Numbered from the stretch's first letter, positions 30,287 to 36,865 are shown. The stretch is DNA of 43,328 bases from Candidatus Yonathbacteria bacterium (GCA_013334825.1 JAAXWR010000001.1:406731-450058); one strand, 5' to 3'. The notes: generated by a model from the letters alone, not told the origin. Made by a program: numbers and translations.

Positions 30287-30382
30287 GCGTGTAGTATACC
30301 AACTCATAAGTTTTTTCGCTAGAGCTTCATACAAAAACGATAAAAAAATACATACCCCACACAAGTGTTCCAAACAGTTATC

Positions 30383-30428
30383 TTCCGCACGGCGAACATA
30401 TTGCGCGCAATATGTTCGCCGTGCGGAA
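30383..30428. repeat. Perfect 46-bp palindrome
   Basis: TTCCGCACGGCGAACATATTGCG|CGCAATATGTTCGCCGTGCGGAA, no loop or mismatch. Confidence 0.9.
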
Positions 30429-30468
30429 ATGTCTGAGATATATGCCTATTTCTGTCGTACGAAAATGC

Positions 30469-30573
30469 TTGACAAAGTATACACAATATGCTATACTTTT
30501 CCTATCAGTGAGGTGCGGAAACATTCTGAGCAATATGCAAATGCTTGACAAATAATTCAACATCTGCTATAAT
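30469..30573 (+). promoter_or_regulatory. Tandem sigma70-type promoters P1 and P2
   Basis: TTGACA(30469)-N17-TATACT(30492) and TTGACA(30545)-N17-TATAAT(30568), both with an extended -10 TG. Confidence 0.85.
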
Positions 30574-30584
30574 ACTCTCATACC

Positions 30585-30894
30585 ATACAGGGACGGAAGC
30601 ACCACCTTACAACATCATATATTCTACGTCTCTGGGGAGGGACATGACACGAGTCATTGTAGTGTACGTGTGCGAGAAAGCGATTGCTGTCTCTCTTCCC
30701 TATTTATACACTTTTCAGGAAGAGAGACGCCAATCGCTTTTTTGTCAGGAGAGCGACGGAGATGAGGGTTTGTTGGATACGGGGCATACATATATTTGGC
30801 CTTTCGTATCTCACTCACCTTCGCCGCCCTCTTGGCACATACAAGCCAAGATTGTACCTTACGTCCGAACCAATGGGGGCATGACTCCCTGTAT
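30585..30894 (+). ncRNA. Candidate large structured leader RNA
   Basis: Starts just after P2; closing pair ATACAGGGA/TCCCTGTAT; internal stems at about 30674-30742 and 30746-30834; GTGTGC/GCACAT. Confidence 0.6.
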
Positions 30895-30907
30895 CGGACA
30901 ACACCTG

Positions 30908-31157
30908 AGGGGAAACGTGACGGACATACTGTCCGACGCGATTCCCCTTCTCCAATCAGCTGGCGATTGCGTGTGAAGCGCAATCACCAGCTGATAGAGA
31001 ATTGTTCTTTGTTAAATATGAAATATAAAATATGAATAAAAAAACCTATTGAACATCATGTACAGCGTATGGGTGACGAGTAATTTTATACTTACGACTC
31101 GTCCCCCGCACGCTGTACATAGATTTCAATAATTTAACGGGCCGTCAGAAATGGCGG
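30908..31157 (+). repeat. Array spacer module 1
   Basis: H1 30908-30948, H2 30949-31000, TGTTCTTT 31003, H3 31047-31131 (ATGTACAGCGT/ACGCTGTACAT), small hairpin 31142-31157. Confidence 0.75.
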
Positions 31158-31164
31158 TAAAAAA

Positions 31165-31392
31165 ATGAAAGCGACTTCAAAAAAATCAACAAAATTCCAG
31201 CCCCGCAATATCGTGGAGTTGGCGCACGCAGTTGCAACTGGGGAACACATACCCCAGGCAACACAAGCGCAGTCAGTCGCCGAGAGGCGTGCGACTGCAA
31301 AAAAAACGGCGATGATTACCCCGCAGGGTAACGTCGTCGTCGCCGCGTCATACGCGGTGGACGTTATTAAAGAGGAGTGGGCTAAAAAGTAG
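31165..31392 (+). CDS. Small hypothetical protein (cassette 1)
   Basis: 75-aa ORF fitting exactly between modules 1 and 2. Confidence 0.7.
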   Translation: MKATSKKSTKFQPRNIVELAHAVATGEHIPQATQAQSVAERRATAKKTAMITPQGNVVVAASYAVDVIKEEWAKK

Positions 31393-31403
31393 CACTCCTT
31401 TTC

Positions 31404-31579
31404 AGGGAAGGGTATCGGATCACACCGACCCCTTCCCTCTCTTATTCAGACCATGAGTCAATCATTCGTGTTCTGAAAGAGAGTCTGTTCTTTAATAACG
31501 CCTGTCTATTTCAAAATGACGAAACGGAATGATATATTTCAATTATTTATTTCGTTTCGTCGTTTTGAGAGAAACGGCG
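31404..31579 (+). repeat. Array spacer module 2
   Basis: H1 31404-31438, H2 31439-31483, TGTTCTTT 31486, H3 31499-31579. Confidence 0.75.
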
Positions 31580-31584
31580 ATAAC

Positions 31585-31704
31585 AAGGGAATTGACCCCC
31601 TTTGTAAACGCGACATATAAAAAGAGGTTATTGAAAGGTTCTCTGTCGCAAGGATTGATGAAAATCCAAAGGTCATGGAACTTCATCAATTACAAACTTC
31701 CTTT
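31585..31704 (+). ncRNA. Candidate structured RNA occupying cassette 2
   Basis: Stems TTTGTA/TACAAA, GCGACA/TGTCGC and ATTGATGAA/TTCATCAAT; possible TGACC/GGTCA pseudoknot. Confidence 0.4.
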
Positions 31705-31715
31705 CTACACTTTGC

Positions 31716-31992
31716 AGGGAGATGTGTTACGTTACAGCGTAAACATCTTCCTCCCATTTCAGGACACGAATAAACCTTCGCGTTTTGAAACAGGGATTTG
31801 TTCTTTAGAAACTAAAATAAAAAATATTAAACAAAAAATAAAAAACTCCCCATTGGAACAATGACGGAGCAGATGAGTGAATTATTGCTATACACACCCA
31901 TCCGCCGTATCGCTGTTTTGTATGGCGAAATCTTATTGCGCGCGTAGCGGATTAAAACATCTTTTTTAACGCCGCGACGCGGCAAAACGGAG
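31716..31992 (+). repeat. Array spacer module 3
   Basis: H1 31716-31752, H2 31753-31795, TGTTCTTT 31799, imperfect H3 about 31850-31925, small hairpin GCCGCGACGCGGC, GGAG RBS. Confidence 0.7.
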
Positions 31993-31999
31993 AATTATT

Positions 32000-32476
32000 G
32001 TGAGTAAGAAATATCTTCCTATGATTTTAGATGACGAAACCTATATTCCATCTCTGATGGATGGATGGTCAAAAGATTCTGAGCTTCGGGTCCGTCTTTT
32101 TGACCAGACGGGAAGACTCGACGGTTTGACATTCCGCCAGGCGGCGGGAATCATTGAAAAGGCTACTGGAAACAGTGTCCTGGTCAATCCGTATGACAAG
32201 GAAACCATCTCTTCTCTCGGAGGAGAAGATGGGGGTTATTCCCGGGGAAGTGAAGGTCGTTACCCCGAGACCTACTCCCACAAGGGAGGAGGTCTCACGT
32301 ACATGACTGGGAGCTGGAGGGGGCTTTCCATAAAGCCATCCGACGAAGCCAATCGCTGGTTGCTTGACTGCACACAGTGGTGGAAGGAGTCGGAGAGTTT
32401 TCGAGCTCAGGTCATTGAGGCGGCAGAAGCTGTCTTAAATGATCCTCAGTTCGAGGACATTTCTCTCCCTGAATGA
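32000..32476 (+). CDS. Hypothetical protein (cassette 3)
   Basis: 158-aa ORF with GTG start and GGAG upstream; ends about 10 nt before module 4. Confidence 0.8.
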   Translation: MSKKYLPMILDDETYIPSLMDGWSKDSELRVRLFDQTGRLDGLTFRQAAGIIEKATGNSVLVNPYDKETISSLGGEDGGYSRGSEGRYPETYSHKGGGLTYMTGSWRGLSIKPSDEANRWLLDCTQWWKESESFRAQVIEAAEAVLNDPQFEDISLPE

Positions 32477-32486
32477 GACGTTGCGA

Positions 32487-32695
32487 AGGGAAGTCAGATC
32501 GGTACATCCGACGACTTCCCTCCTTTTTTCAGACCATAAGTATTTCTTGTTGTCTGATAGAGGTTTTGTTCTTTGAAAAAGTTTCTCCTGTTGTTGTTCA
32601 ACTTCGCGTACGGCATCGGGTCGGTGATGGTCATCGGTCGGATGCTGTACGGGAAGACAAAAAATCGCCGCGCGTTCGGCAAAAAAGGAGGAATT
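32487..32695 (+). repeat. Array spacer module 4
   Basis: H1 32487-32521, H2 32522-32563, TGTTCTTTGAAAAA 32567, 53-nt H3 32603-32655, small hairpin, AGGAGG. Confidence 0.85.
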
Positions 32696-32857
32696 ATGAA
32701 TATATTTCTTGCGGGGCTTTGTGCCCTCGCAGCGGTGGCATTGTTGGTCGCTGCCGCCACCGTCGGCACGGGGATGCTCGTGCTGACACAGATGCAGACG
32801 GCCGCGGCATTCGTTGCTGCCGCCGTGTTGCTCGCCAAGGTGGCAAACAGATTATGA
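32696..32857 (+). CDS. 53-aa hydrophobic (two-TM) peptide (cassette 4)
   Basis: AGGAGG-AATT-ATG; MNIFLAGLCALAAVALLVAAATVGTGMLVLTQMQTAAAFVAAAVLLAKVANRL. Confidence 0.7.
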   Translation: MNIFLAGLCALAAVALLVAAATVGTGMLVLTQMQTAAAFVAAAVLLAKVANRL

Positions 32858-32864
32858 CGGGTTC

Positions 32865-33047
32865 GAGGAGCTACCCATAATACAAAGCTCCTCACTCTAT
32901 CCGGATGTGTGTCCGGACTGATGAGCCGAAAACGGCGAAAGAGCTTGTTCTTTTTATTATCGCGTCCTTCTGCGGGGAGATACTCTCTCCCCTTTCTCCC
33001 CACAGAAGGACGTGAATCAATAATAAAAATAGGTGCTAGAAAGAGCA
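32865..33047 (+). repeat. Array spacer module 5 (ribozyme-containing)
   Basis: H1 GAGGAGCT/AGCTCCTC 32865-32893, hammerhead in the H2 slot, TGTTCTTT 32946, H3 32960-33015. Confidence 0.75.
32895..32943 (+). ncRNA. Hammerhead ribozyme, type III
   Basis: CTC-TA | TCCGGA-TGTGTG-TCCGGA (stem I) CTGATGA GCCG-AAAA-CGGC (stem II) GAAA-GAG; complete catalytic core, predicted cleavage after A32899. Confidence 0.85.
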
Positions 33048-33052
33048 AAAAA

Positions 33053-33286
33053 ATGAAAATAACAATAAGCACGAGCCATAAACTCGACGCTTGGCAGATG
33101 AAAATGATCTGCCGAATTCTGAGTGTCCGGCTCAACGAGGCGCAAAGGCAGTGTCTCGTATCAATCGCCGAAGCTTTAGAAGATGCGACGGCATATCTCC
33201 CGGTGAGACGAAAAGTCCACCGGCGGTGGTTTTCTCGAAAGGAGGATCAGGTTATCGATGTTCTTTTCGACATGAAGAACTCCTGA
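33053..33286 (+). CDS. Small hypothetical protein (cassette 5)
   Basis: 77-aa ORF starting MKITIS after an A-rich leader; ends 7 nt before module 6. Confidence 0.65.
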   Translation: MKITISTSHKLDAWQMKMICRILSVRLNEAQRQCLVSIAEALEDATAYLPVRRKVHRRWFSRKEDQVIDVLFDMKNS

Positions 33287-33293
33287 ATTTTTC

Positions 33294-33506
33294 GGAGAAA
33301 CATGCGCCCCCAAGGCCCATGTTTCTCCCTTTTGTTCGGATGACAAACATATCGTTTGTCGTTCGATTGAGGATTTTGTTCTTTGAAAAAGTTTCTCCTT
33401 TGTTTTTTCTGTTCGCGTACGGCATCGGGTCGGTGATGGTCATCGGTCGGATGCTGTACGGGAAATATATCAACAACAAAAAACGCCCTTTCGGGCAGGA
33501 GGAACA
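33294..33506 (+). repeat. Array spacer module 6
   Basis: H1 33294-33328, H2 33329-33372, TGTTCTTTGAAAAA 33377, 53-nt H3 33412-33464, GCCCTTTCGGGC, AGGAGG. Confidence 0.85.
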
Positions 33507-33854
33507 ATGACAGAAATAAATAAGAAGCAGATAATAATCCGCCTGGGGAGTGGAAAAAGATTCACAGCGTGGATTGATTTTTCCCCATCAAATTATGCAG
33601 GGATAGCTGAAATTGTAGGAGATGCGTTCCCGCAATTCAGACGAGGTCGTTGGGGGAATTACCCCCACTATACGTACTCCAGGATGTGGAGTACGGGTGG
33701 TGGTTTATCGGAGGCATGGGAAATCTTTGGTGACACGGTGTACGTCACCGATGATTTTTCAACGCTGAGGGGCGACGAGATCCCCCTAAACACAGAGGGG
33801 GAAGTAACCCCCGTTAGCAGACAACCTCTTATGAGGGAGTATGCCAACTGGTGA
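33507..33854 (+). CDS. Hypothetical protein (cassette 6)
   Basis: 115-aa ORF with AGGAGG RBS. Confidence 0.8.
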   Translation: MTEINKKQIIIRLGSGKRFTAWIDFSPSNYAGIAEIVGDAFPQFRRGRWGNYPHYTYSRMWSTGGGLSEAWEIFGDTVYVTDDFSTLRGDEIPLNTEGEVTPVSRQPLMREYANW

Positions 33855-33864
33855 CTTTTAACTT

Positions 33865-34023
33865 GGGAGACTTGCGACGAAACACAAGGCAAGTCTCCCC
33901 TTATTATTGAGCATTTCTTTGCGAAGGAATGTTCATAGTGGGATTGTTCTTTGAAATATGCTCTATTATCACATACGGCATTTAGGTGAAAAATCTTTTT
34001 CGCTTAAATGCTGTATGGGATAG
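33865..34023 (+). repeat. Array spacer module 7
   Basis: H1 33865-33899, H2 33900-33942, TGTTCTTTGAAA 33945, H3 33963-34023 (CATACGGCAT/ATGCTGTATG). Confidence 0.8.
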
Positions 34024-34045
34024 AAAAAATTAAAAAAGAAAAAGT

Positions 34046-34420
34046 ATGATTAACAAATATGCTGGTGCCGTTGAAAGCGCTTTTGCGCTTTCAAATGATG
34101 AAATGGAAGAACTTGAGAGGTTTCCCGAGGTGACTCGAGGAAGTTCCATTTCTTTCTTGAAAGGAGTATGCGGATGCGCCCGCCTGTTTCTCCAAGAGAC
34201 AGGCGTGGAGGAACATCTGTCTCCTCTATGTTTTTCTGAGGAAGACTTTTACGGCTCCACGGTCGACGGTCGTGTTGTCGTACTGAGAGTTCTCGACTAC
34301 GACATGGGGGATGTCGTAGTGGGAATCTTTTTCTCCTCCGCAATCGCCAACCCCGAAGAGATTCAGAAGGCGATTGCCGAAGGAGAAAAACCGCTCTTCT
34401 ACAGAGCAGAAATCGCATAA
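34046..34420 (+). CDS. Acidic hypothetical protein (cassette 7)
   Basis: 124-aa ORF between modules 7 and 8. Confidence 0.75.
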   Translation: MINKYAGAVESAFALSNDEMEELERFPEVTRGSSISFLKGVCGCARLFLQETGVEEHLSPLCFSEEDFYGSTVDGRVVVLRVLDYDMGDVVVGIFFSSAIANPEEIQKAIAEGEKPLFYRAEIA

Positions 34421-34427
34421 TGTTTCT

Positions 34428-34656
34428 GGAGGCAACGTGCTATGGTTCACGCACGTTCCTCCCCTTTGTTCGAATGACAAACATATCGTTTGCCATTCGA
34501 TAGAGGTTTTGTTCTTTGAAAAAGATTCTCCTGTTGTTGAGTTCGCGTACGGCATCGGGTCGGTGATGGTCATCGGTCGGATGCTGTACGGGAAGAAAAA
34601 TATCAACAACCGCTGCGAAAATGCAGCACATCTACCGCTTTAGCGGAGGAGGAATT
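34428..34656 (+). repeat. Array spacer module 8
   Basis: H1 34428-34462, H2 34463-34506, TGTTCTTTGAAAAA 34510, 53-nt H3 34542-34594, CCGCTTTAGCGG, GGAGG. Confidence 0.85.
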
Positions 34657-35289
34657 ATGGGAAAGTCATTCAAGGTTTTTACAATCGAGAGCGGCTCCGT
34701 TAAGGAAGGAGCCGTCGTCGAAAAACTCACCCTCAAGGGGGCTGGGATTGATATCCCTGCCATCTTTGTGGGCGAGCAGGGGCGTGGTCGCGAACGAGGA
34801 GTCCTGCCTGTCCAACTTCCTTCCGCGCTTCAGGCGGAGTGGAAAGAAAAAGGACGGGTCCGGATTTCTTCCGCCGAGGTCGGCACGACCAAAGCGGGAA
34901 AGCCAAAGCTCTACGCTCGGTCCGGCGAAGGCGTGGACGCGGATGACGCCGTCATCTGCGTTTTCAGAACCCACATCGGTTTCCGTGGTGGAAACTCCCA
35001 CACCGGCGACCGCACAGGGGAAGTAGAAAAGGATGCGTACGGTGACGAGCGTATCAGATTTCACCCATTCCCCGGTGAGATTTTTGTAAGTGGTCATATC
35101 GCCCAGGGTGATGCCGGCCGCATGGGTGGCGGTCAGCAAATGGTCGCCACAATGCCCAAGGGCACTGTGTTCCGCACTGGATACAGTGGCCGCCTCTACG
35201 GCGGTCCCGCCGCCCACTATTACCTGTGGAACGGCGAGCAACTGCTCGCCATGACATGGGATGAGAGGGTCGCCTCGGACATTTTTTAA
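34657..35289 (+). CDS. Gly-rich hypothetical protein (cassette 8)
   Basis: 210-aa ORF from MGKSF with GGAGG RBS; visibly GC-richer than the host genes. Confidence 0.85.
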   Translation: MGKSFKVFTIESGSVKEGAVVEKLTLKGAGIDIPAIFVGEQGRGRERGVLPVQLPSALQAEWKEKGRVRISSAEVGTTKAGKPKLYARSGEGVDADDAVICVFRTHIGFRGGNSHTGDRTGEVEKDAYGDERIRFHPFPGEIFVSGHIAQGDAGRMGGGQQMVATMPKGTVFRTGYSGRLYGGPAAHYYLWNGEQLLAMTWDERVASDIF

Positions 35290-35359
35290 CCTGAGAGATC
35301 CCAAATACTAACCGGATACGAAATCCAACGTGATTCCATATCCGGTAACTTTTCGGAGT

Positions 35360-35513
35360 GGAGACTTGCGACGAAACACGAAGCAAGTCTCCCCTTATTA
35401 TTGAGCATTTCTTTGCGAAGGAATGTTCATAGTGAGGTATGCGCAAAATCTGAATCCATGTACTTTTCTGGGAAGACATTTCCTTCCCCGTCTTCCCAGA
35501 AAAGTACGTGGGG
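35360..35513 (+). repeat. Terminal array module 9 (lacks TGTTCTTT)
   Basis: H1+H2 35360-35437 nearly identical to module 7, then TATGCGCAAA in place of the motif; H3-like stem 35455-35513. Confidence 0.8.
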
Positions 35514-35716
35514 ATATATGGTGCGTGAATATGGGCGGCGCGAAGCGCCGCCCATATTGTTCTATTGTGTATTCCAACTATCCATGCTATTGTACATCCA
35601 TTACCAGCGGAATGCGCGAAGTAACCCTCCTGTCCGACTCCCTATACGACACCATCGGCACGAGACCCTCGCACACATACCGATTCCGCCATCGTGCGGT
35701 TTTTTATTTTATATAT

Positions 35717-36865
35717 ATGAGTACAGACGAAATAACCAATACAGATGCTGTTGCTACAGAAGAAATTCTCGAGACAACAGAACAGGCAGATAATAGTAAT
35801 CATCCGATGACGGCACTTGTTGCTGATTCCCCTGCTCCTCCGGCTATCGGCGATCTTGTGGAAGGACCAGTCATTGCTATCGAACGCAATGCAGTATTCG
35901 TTGACTTGGCACCTTTTGGTACAGGTACCATCTATGGTCGTGAACTCTTGAACGCACGTGATGTTATCCGCCACACAAGCATTGGTGACACCATCACTGC
36001 CAAGGTTGTGGACGCAGAAAATGAGAATGGATACATTGAACTCTCTCTCAAGGAGGCACGTCAAGCTCTCATTTGGACAGACGCTGAAGACGCCATCCGC
36101 AAGAAAACACTCCTTGAACTTACCGTCAAAGAAGCAAATAAGGGTGGGCTTATCATGGAATGGCAGGGTATCGCAGGCTTTCTCCCCGCTTCCCAACTTT
36201 CTACCGACCACTATCCACGCGTTGAAGGTGGCGACAAAGATAAAATCACCAATGAATTGCGCAAATTGGTAGGTGAAAAAATCTCTGTCATGATTCTTTC
36301 CGCAAATCCCAAAGAAGGTAAGCTTATCTTCTCTGAAAAAGATATTGCAGATAAAGACCGTACGGAACTTGCTGGAAGACATGCTGTTGGCGATGTCATC
36401 GAAGGACCAGTAACAGGTATTGTAGACTTTGGTGTCTTTGTAAAAGTTGAAGAAGGTCTCGAAGGACTCGTTCACATTTCTGAAATTGACTGGGGACTCG
36501 TCGATGATCCGAAACATTTTTGTAAAGTCGGCGAAACCGCCAAAGCAAAAATTATTGAGATCAAAGATGGTAAAGTATCCCTTTCTATCAAAGCACTCAA
36601 GGACAATCCTTGGAAAACTGCGGGTGAACACTTTAAAAAGGGCGACAAAGTAAATGGTATTGTTATCAAATTCAATCGTCACGGTGCGCTTGTGTCCATT
36701 GAAGAAGGTGTTGCGGGACTCGTTCATGTCTCTGACTTCCCTTCCGAAGAGATGCTTCGTAAGACATTAGAATTGGCAAAAACCTATCCATTTGAAATCT
36801 CTCTTTTCGAACCAAAAGATCAACGTATGACTCTCGTCTATACAGGAGAAAAGAAAGACAAGTAA
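35717..36865 (+). CDS. rpsA: 30S ribosomal protein S1
   Basis: Four S1 domains (GFLPASQL, DFGVFV..EEGLEGLVHISEI, GLVHVSD); start reassigned to MSTDE. Confidence 0.9.
   Translation: MSTDEITNTDAVATEEILETTEQADNSNHPMTALVADSPAPPAIGDLVEGPVIAIERNAVFVDLAPFGTGTIYGRELLNARDVIRHTSIGDTITAKVVDAENENGYIELSLKEARQALIWTDAEDAIRKKTLLELTVKEANKGGLIMEWQGIAGFLPASQLSTDHYPRVEGGDKDKITNELRKLVGEKISVMILSANPKEGKLIFSEKDIADKDRTELAGRHAVGDVIEGPVTGIVDFGVFVKVEEGLEGLVHISEIDWGLVDDPKHFCKVGETAKAKIIEIKDGKVSLSIKALKDNPWKTAGEHFKKGDKVNGIVIKFNRHGALVSIEEGVAGLVHVSDFPSEEMLRKTLELAKTYPFEISLFEPKDQRMTLVYTGEKKDK

Follow-up and report, generated by a model that had tools for sequence, protein, structure and literature searches.

Antitermination of ribosomal RNA (rRNA) operons involves a boxB hairpin, boxA and boxC, together with NusB-S10, NusA, NusG and SuhB. 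Outside rRNA operons, Stringer et al. reportedly described boxA in 2020 upstream of arrays of clustered regularly interspaced short palindromic repeats (CRISPR). Baniulyte et al. 2017 (PMC5725501) also place boxA upstream of suhB and other genes and give GYTCTTTAANA as its search pattern; the consensus is UGCUCUUUAACA in E. coli and AUGAUCUUUGAAA in B. subtilis, the latter immediately 3' of a small hairpin (PMC13753749). NusB-NusE is described as recognising 8 nucleotides (nt) of boxA and as having a sequence-independent double-stranded RNA site contiguous with the boxA 5' end (PMC3177189). In this study we analysed a 43,328-nt stretch (the window) of the three-contig, 839-kb genome G000 of a Candidatus Yonathbacteria bacterium, in which an array of small genes carries a boxA-like motif, TGTTCTTT, before each of its units, and compared it with the array of a congener, genome G001.

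Like rRNA leaders, the array shows a promoter, a hairpin and an 8-12-nt GYUCUUU-type motif, and the genome's own 16S leader has the same layout. It differs in that the motif occurs eight times, once in front of every one of the eight units of a protein-coding array, always after a terminator-like hairpin and with a 3' half unlike the rrn version, and in that Rho, the usual E. coli target of the system, was not found. With CRISPR arrays and suhB it would share a boxA outside rRNA, which keeps polymerase going through a long repetitive array or regulates a gene; there, however, one boxA stands at the array leader, whereas here there is one per cassette, accompanied by a hairpin or a ribozyme.

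Arrays of integrons and attC clusters that lack an integrase (CALINs; Cury et al. 2016, PMC4889954) likewise have a promoter at one end, co-oriented promoterless ORFan cassettes, structured but sequence-variable sites and content that differs between close relatives. The present array differs from them in having neither IntI nor R/L box inverted repeats, in that one site is a ribozyme and in that the repeated word fits boxA. Among arrangements already described, the closest is that of the DUF1874 motif, which is structured and recurs in one intergenic region after another (motif, open reading frame (ORF), motif, ORF) with no integrase, and for which Weinberg et al. 2017 (PMC5737381) did not decide between RNA and single-stranded DNA; the layout here, i.e. 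terminator, hairpin and boxA, is different. The DUF1874 motif was not listed by an Rfam scan at E<=10 over 30300-35750, the presence of its model in the release being unchecked. As for bacterial self-cleaving ribozymes, the review PMC6765202 states that their role is largely elusive and that processing of polycistronic transcripts is only a suggestion. The array resembles the bacterial hammerhead and twister ribozymes treated in that review in having a type III hammerhead between cistrons on the sense strand, and differs in that the hammerhead is interchangeable with a plain hairpin, uses the upstream terminator U-tail for stem III and is followed at once by boxA. As parts, boxA, hammerheads and integrase-less cassette-like arrays are known; full-text literature searching, supplements excluded, gave no description of boxA before each cassette or of a hammerhead coupled to boxA.

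The array and its junction motif

The best explanation, to which as a whole we give a probability of roughly 0.6, is that the spacers are composite RNA signals, combining boxA antitermination with cistron separation, whose halves are exchanged by homology, and that 30469-35565 is an accessory operon of ~5 kb with seven small ORFan genes, one gene-less unit and two strong tandem promoters. Judged from its sequence context, TGTTCTTT is most likely a boxA anti-termination signal, i.e. a putative NusB-S10 site, and not the DNA crossover site that a first-pass annotation had proposed by analogy with integron attC sites. The window has 12 copies of the motif where 2.96 were expected (0/100 shuffles reached 12), with nine copies on the + strand between 31003 and 34517, eight at gene junctions and one (33259) in a coding frame. 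No comparable motif cluster with hairpin layout was found elsewhere in the 839-kb genome; a second cluster, at C2:149283-150430, was rejected as being without any such layout. Throughout the 14 junction and leader motifs of both arrays (eight in the window, six in G001) GTTCTTT is invariant and preceded by T, and position 8 of the motif is G in eight, T in four and A in two. One of them, the 11-mer from G 31487, fits the full GYTCTTTAANA.

All folded spacers follow a single plan: H1, H2 (or, once, a hammerhead), motif, H3 and ribosome-binding site. H1 is a strong GC-rich hairpin with a T-rich tail (5-6 T in 8), resembling an intrinsic terminator. Directly after it comes H2, a two-tier hairpin whose lower stem pairs the H1 tail (YCUU..) with a purine box, GAWAGAG; the motif-proximal stem is made from the H1 tail in hairpin-type and ribozyme-type spacers alike. 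The motif starts 1-5 nt 3' of the H2 stem in the window and up to ~20 nt in related arrays, and opens the downstream half, which continues with an A-rich linker, the large hairpin H3, a small GC hairpin and a Shine-Dalgarno/ribosome-binding site. All eight units lie on the + strand, seven with small genes and one without. Window spacers are called W1-W8, those of G001 G1-G6, and related loci carry L-numbers. The features are as follows, hairpins being taken from folds and lengths given in amino acids (aa).

30469-30497 and 30545-30573, + strand: sigma-70-type tandem promoters, 11/12 and 12/12 consensus positions, 17-nt spacers, TG before the -10, pointing into the array
30580-30907, + strand: non-coding leader, with a long hairpin (30671-30748) and then a degenerate motif copy
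30908-30948 and 30949-31000, + strand: entry hairpin pair, H1(0) and H2(0), before the first boxA-like motif
31003-31010, + strand: boxA-like motif 1 (TGTTCTTT)
31165-31392, + strand: cassette gene 1, 75 aa, no Pfam or PHROG family, the sole gene in common with the G001 array
31404-31493, + strand: spacer 1, H1 31404-31438, H2 31439-31483, boxA-like motif 31486-31493
31494-31806, + strand: gene-less cassette 2, leader hairpin ~31511-31568, H1 31716-31752, H2 31753-31795, boxA-like motif 31799-31806
32000-32476, + strand: cassette gene 3, 158 aa, no family
32487-32574, + strand: spacer 3, H1 32487-32521, H2 32522-32563, boxA-like motif 32567-32574
32603-32655, 33412-33464 and 34542-34594, + strand: H3 leader hairpin, three identical 53-mers
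32696-32857, + strand: cassette gene 4, 53 aa, hydrophobic
32865-32893, + strand: H1 of spacer 4
32894-32944, + strand: minimal type III hammerhead in the place of H2 in spacer 4, predicted cut 32899/32900
32946-32953, + strand: boxA-like motif right behind hammerhead stem III
33053-33286, + strand: cassette gene 5, 77 aa, weak DUF2664 match below the cut-off
33294-33384, + strand: spacer 5, H1 ~33294-33327, H2 33328-33373, boxA-like motif 33377-33384
33507-33854, + strand: cassette gene 6, 115 aa, no family
33865-33952, + strand: spacer 6, H1 33865-33899, H2 33900-33942, boxA-like motif 33945-33952
34046-34420, + strand: cassette gene 7, 124 aa, no family
34428-34517, + strand: spacer 7, H1 34428-34462, H2 34463-34506, boxA-like motif 34510-34517
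34657-35289, + strand: cassette gene 9, 210 aa, large conserved family without a Pfam model
35360-35437, + strand: terminal spacer, H1 35360-35392, H2 35393-35437, no boxA-like motif after it
35448-35565, + strand: long terminal hairpin and intrinsic terminator (35528-35558)

Both promoters belong to a direct repeat (D6). Unit 2 (31494-31798) has the complete signal set and no convincing gene, the only candidates being a 32-codon frame and a frame crossing the next motif.

The comparative data indicate that H2 is a selected structure. In an alignment of 16 H2-motif units (five genomes) to which the folded structure was applied, pairing was seen in 88 % of cells, compared with 69.7 % in shuffles (0/500 reached the observed value) and 38-49 % with slid partners, and double-sided changes in 45 cells, compared with 13.0 in shuffles (again 0/500), although these figures overstate somewhat because the sequences share ancestry and themselves supplied the structure. 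The clearest case is the entry hairpin, where the flanks are identical in the window and G001 and the H2 stem has been rewritten by paired changes. H2 showed no apparent fit to a pistol, hatchet, twister or hairpin ribozyme or to a kink-turn, and Rfam at gathering scores returned only tRNAs in the window and 11 related loci. A cassette-specific leader-trailer helix as in rRNA was also discarded, the mean of own duplexes (-36.6) being no better than that of mismatched pairs (-38.9, standard deviation 8.5).

The motif is on the sense strand just 3' of this covarying hairpin, i.e. in the transcribed-leader position of a boxA, and the double-stranded RNA site of NusB-NusE matches the stem found a few nt upstream of it. 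The own 16S leader of the genome consists of a promoter, a 6-bp hairpin and GCUCUUUGACAA, and those of four relatives of a promoter, a hairpin and a boxA-like [N][N]U[C/G]UUUG[A/U]CAA, with slightly different cores. In other lineages the motif stands ~15 nt behind strong promoters (L063 1535, L072 2377, L077 5154). The genome encodes NusB (100 bits), a SuhB-like protein (147 bits) and RNase III (132 bits), the last adjoining nusB on the same strand (G000:C3:159477-160890). Rho was not detected in this genome, which is rated 97 % complete: no Rho RNA-binding domain was found, and TIGR00767 reached at best 59 bits against a cut-off of 509. A reading of TTGTTC as a -35 box was given up, as inspection by eye gave no consistent -10.

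The same observations bear on the possibility that the spacers are RNA processing or stability modules, the motif being a single-stranded nuclease site or a ribosome/S1 landing site, with polymerase unmodified and H1 acting only as a 3' stabiliser. Such a role would suit a motif that is U-rich, single-stranded in every fold, flanked by hairpins and unlike rrn boxA in its 3' half, and the hammerhead and RNase III make processing plausible. We nevertheless regard it as unlikely: the invariant 7-nt core is the boxA core of the published pattern, the order of hairpin then motif and the promoter-proximal position copy the rRNA leaders of the same clade, and nuclease sites are rarely so invariant across phyla.

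Several observations weigh against the combination of boxA, terminator and ribozyme proposed here. G[CT]TCTTT[GA]A occurs 60 times in the genome, mostly in long ORFs, and because GTTCTTT is short, T-rich and frequent, the boxA assignment depends on context. Towards its 3' end the array motif varies (GAAA, AAUA, UUAU and others) and departs from the GACAA of rrn. A boxA core was present within 400 nt upstream of gene-9 homologues in 7 of 26 loci, which is a modest enrichment over a background of 0.117 per 400 nt. A covariance model of H2 plus boxA recovered 7/7 training sites in G000 but gave only two single 30-bit matches in 150 other Patescibacteria genomes, one of them (L100) with the same H1-H2-boxA layout by eye and the other doubtful; the module therefore seems wide in range but patchy. 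A consensus terminator scan did not call the H1 hairpins, because their loops exceed 8 nt, and the hammerhead scores 28.2 bits, below the Rfam gathering score of 48.5. Finally, a fixed crossover point could likewise account for two features: TTCTTT is absent at both array ends, and identity breaks off exactly at the motif G.

The hammerhead and the proposed working of the array

The hammerhead of spacer 4 matched RF00008 with an E value of 0.0065. It has the type III core CUGAUGA...GAAA, the cleavage triplet CUA and three stems, of which stem I has eight pairs as counted by pattern scan (six on reading the hairpin) and stems II and III have four each; a hammerhead with a short stem III is a variant mentioned in PMC5737381. 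Eight hammerheads of one subfamily were found when the pattern was searched for in the window, in G001 and around gene-9 homologues; they come from five sources, i.e. the window, L060, L066 (three), L068 (two) and L072. All eight are on the gene strand and none on the opposite strand, and their stems covary, the stem I, II and III sequences differing around a similar core and similar loops (n=8). G[CT]TCTTT follows immediately after three of the eight (window, L060, L072), and several distant Patescibacteria have this layout again, together with hammerheads related to the present one.

Three unrelated hammerhead-type loci also encode, divergently and upstream of the array, a TrmB-type helix-turn-helix protein (L066 1732-2592, L068 4767-5579 and L072 1458-2222, minus strand), which may regulate these arrays.

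Under the composite-signal explanation, each spacer would consist of a 3' half belonging to the upstream gene (H1 and H2, or the hammerhead) and a 5' half belonging to the downstream gene, the latter starting with UGUUCUUU as boxA, the NusB-S10 binding site. The boxA behind the promoter would load NusB-S10 and make RNA polymerase termination-resistant, so that it would run through the H1 terminators. Cleavage of the transcript, through the hammerhead and probably, at H2, through RNase III, would separate the cistrons, and each upstream message would then end in H1 with its U-tail, just as it would after termination. A fresh boxA would be placed behind every cut site because the cut frees the upstream boxA tether and the complex is reloaded. 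The breakpoint of the first-pass annotation would thus be the seam between two functional modules. In this way, an apparent recombination site becomes a testable gene-expression device, in which repeated boxA would allow read-through of a string of terminators in an organism without detectable Rho, and a bacterial hammerhead ribozyme is offered a concrete, testable role.

Spacer mosaics, gene turnover and recombination

All spacers of both arrays were compared by BLAST (E<=0.01), with positions counted from the G of the motif. The similarities reported by the first-pass annotation, in its module numbering, proved accurate: the 53-nt H3 is letter-identical in modules 4, 6 and 8 (32603, 33412, 34542), and H1+H2 of modules 7 and 9 agree at 73/76 positions (33866-33941 and 35360-35435; 97 % over 75 nt in BLAST). 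Modules 6 and 8 have H2 in common within a shared block that continues through motif and H3 (-53..+86, 90 % over 140 nt), and H1/H2 of modules 2 and 4 are alike at 82 % over 34 nt (31425-31458 and 32508-32541), a pair absent from the BLAST results at E<=0.01. The block ends were distributed as follows.

Blocks in the downstream half only start at -12 (W3-W7), -4 (W3-W5) and -2 (G1-W6)
Blocks in the upstream half only end at +7 (G2-G4), +6 (G2-W7), -6 (W6-W8) and 0 (terminal G6 with W3, and likewise G6 with G2 and W7)
The motif is crossed unbroken by one pair, W5-W7, from -53 to +86
Other block ends are at +86 to +89, the H3 3' end (three pairs), at -53 to -66, the H1/H2 border, and at +30 (G1-W6)

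Hence, the eight block ends that separate the halves all fall within -12..+7 of the G. The upstream type 'GGAGG.. / UCGRAU..ACAAAC' (W5, W7, G2, G4) is combined with three kinds of downstream half, and the identical-H3 downstream type (W3, W5, W7) with two upstream types. The downstream half found in W6 is seen again in G1, where the upstream half differs. From these pairings across window and G001 spacers it follows that the halves assort independently with their seam at the motif, as had been claimed; the motif as the breakpoint stands only in part, since the joint maps to it but further breakpoints lie at +86..+89, -53..-66 and +30. Moreover, all spacers share the motif, and any one-sided similarity must therefore run out there. 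The seam is the only block common to nearly all spacers, 13-19 nt comprising the hairpin foot and the motif and identical in several of them, and its length suffices for homology-driven exchange. In both arrays the final spacer keeps H1-H2 and lacks TTCTTT, and in G001 its identity to internal spacers extends up to the G and then stops. Outside the array, the 839-kb genome showed no copy of a spacer module: the 22 BLAST pieces obtained all lie within the array.

The mobile unit envisaged earlier, running from the motif through H3, ribosome-binding site and gene to H1-H2, fails when genes are followed between arrays, as both H3 and the trailers vary. Genes do not keep their own H3: the identical H3 leader stands before three unrelated genes, and gene-9 homologues with ~50-66 % best-segment identity (L060, L069, L072, L077) share the plan of motif, linker and big hairpin but have unrelated H3. 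In L060, leaders are again common to different genes within the array. Neither is the trailing H1-H2 kept, the gene 1 trailers of the window and G001 having no similarity at E<=0.01, with a diverged gene 1 C-terminus. On the sequences compared, H3 tracks the array and not the gene, which points to concerted evolution inside the array. Exchange of halves at the seam, at the H3 border and at the H1/H2 border would then reflect short-homology recombination or gene conversion among array members, and whole-gene gain and loss would add to it; integron-type site-specific recombination is not needed to explain the exchange.

Gene content varies between the arrays. G001, of the same genus, has a homologous leader, homologous entry hairpins and gene 1, followed by five genes of which none is shared with the window array; its array motifs are at 532, 1043, 2176, 2923 and 3419, and the array ends beside nusA. 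In G001 the genes for an MBL-fold hydrolase and rpsA are neighbours ~400 nt apart, and the G000 array sits between them (window 30374-30470 and 35565-35719; L095 2118-2530), with homology to the empty site resuming at ~35565, just past the array terminator. Therefore, the whole array with its promoters and terminator is a ~5-kb insertion in G000. In G002 no array was present at the MBL-rpsA place. By this comparison the array is best described as a variable accessory island; its G+C content is 47.7 %, that of the window 43.6 %.

These findings can also be set against an attC-like site, at which a unit [TTCTTT-H3-gene-H1-H2-..TTG] would be cut and joined at G/TTCTTT by a recombinase acting in trans, either the lone Xer-type enzyme or another. 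The clustering of the eight block ends within -12..+7 would be expected from it, as would array ends that retain H1-H2 without TTCTTT, with the G001 identity to internal spacers stopping exactly at G. The different gene content of congeners behind a conserved entry site, an H2 that is two-tiered, conserved in structure and variable in sequence like attC sites, and ORFan cassettes in one orientation under one promoter point the same way; the integron-like trait of promoterless, co-oriented cassettes with a promoter at one end and content varying between relatives is indeed present. However, no tyrosine recombinase was found in the window, and no recombinase or transposase among 42 neighbouring ORFs of six array-bearing loci (Pfam). 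The single PF00589 match in the 839-kb genome, on another contig, is a XerC/XerD (240 bits) that scores 128.7 with TIGR02249 against a cut-off of 265; as it falls below this integron-integrase cut-off, it does not count as IntI. The integron core is GTTRRRY, and attC sites carry an inverse core and a core, RYYYAAC ... GTTRRRY. GTTCTTT, the word at 14/14 sites, does not fit this core and is not part of an inverted repeat, and no inverse core was seen upstream of H2 in the folds (no attC covariance model was run). In addition, some copies of the motif follow promoters directly, and the motif is similar to the boxA that hairpins precede in rRNA leaders. An RNA device, the hammerhead, takes the place of H2 at homologous positions across several phyla, genes do not carry their H3 with them and other breakpoints exist. 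We consider a site of this kind distinctly unlikely, and the attC analogy is better replaced by boxA; of the earlier interpretation, the assorting halves are supported, and the varying gene content accords with it, but the crossover analogy and the mobile unit are not supported.

An ordinary operon with duplicated spacers homogenised by gene conversion, without cassette turnover and with the mosaic as concerted-evolution noise, would account for the identical H3 copies in one array, the similar leader sharing within L060 and breakpoints at several module borders, but is highly improbable in view of a congener in which five other genes follow the same leader and the site of the present array is empty, and of gene 9 as a cassette in the arrays of other phyla and stand-alone in G001.

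Going beyond the composite-signal explanation, it is tempting to speculate, though we find it doubtful, that the arrays are an integrase-less gene-capture platform of ultra-small Patescibacteria, with a border formed by a terminator tail in a hairpin or hammerhead and then boxA, and with genes joined at the 13-19-nt block by an undescribed mechanism. If so, bacterial hammerheads would get a defined job, i.e. co-transcriptional cistron separation coupled to reloading of the antitermination complex.

Related loci, cargo and flanking features

Candidate-phyla bacteria thus hold small, fast-changing gene arrays with a layout common to distant lineages, for which, together with their cargo, the junction module could serve as a search handle. 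A search for gene 1 in 401 genomes of the order gave real matches only in G000 and G001, with three weak others (E 0.003-0.008). The exact junction 19-mer and 18-mer were found at 8 and 43 loci, respectively, in genome and metagenome contigs; an array was present on one contig only, with the same motif spacing as G001:C40, the remaining loci being single chance matches. None of the 13 cassette proteins of the two arrays had a PHROG family or a Pfam family above the cut-off, the sole match being the weak, sub-cut-off one to DUF2664.

The large family without a fold match that such a handle would include is that of gene 9. The family comprises 582 matches at E<=0.001 among 814 candidates, many with 60-90 % identity. 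Gene 9 alone found no related loci, whereas a query with the alignment gave 29, spread over many lineages; in such arrays the gene is a cassette, and in G001 (L061) it is stand-alone with its own promoter. Its AlphaFold model is confident and all-beta (predicted local distance difference test score, pLDDT, 90.9); against solved structures, Foldseek gave no match at E<=0.001 and the best VIA-align Z was 4.5.

One cassette behind an H2-boxA unit encodes a Csx3-domain protein, and HepT/nucleotidyltransferase pairs and an AbiEii gene adjoin arrays; this context hints at defence or counter-defence cargo. The regions concerned are:

L081 1222-2409
L077 3097-5013
L081 4530-5171

The leader counterpart in G001 (L002 1-440) has the same long hairpin, followed by an intact TGTTCTTT at 214, and further blocks downstream are shared between both genomes (window 30580-30907; L002 100-440). 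In the family scan the leader hairpin at 30671-30748 surfaced only as chance microRNA-like matches. The leader may be a decayed cassette or a small RNA.

Small GC hairpins with A-run flanks lie just upstream of ribosome-binding sites at 32665-32682, 33484-33497 and 34611-34628; on the minus strand they look like intrinsic terminators and might block antisense transcription. A ~45-nt perfect palindrome of similar build adjoins the hydrolase gene in both genomes (window 30383-30428; L095 2130-2175). Upstream of rpsA, both genomes have a conserved non-coding stretch ending in a hairpin and T-run (window 35590-35715; L095 2330-2470), which may be an S1 leader or attenuator.

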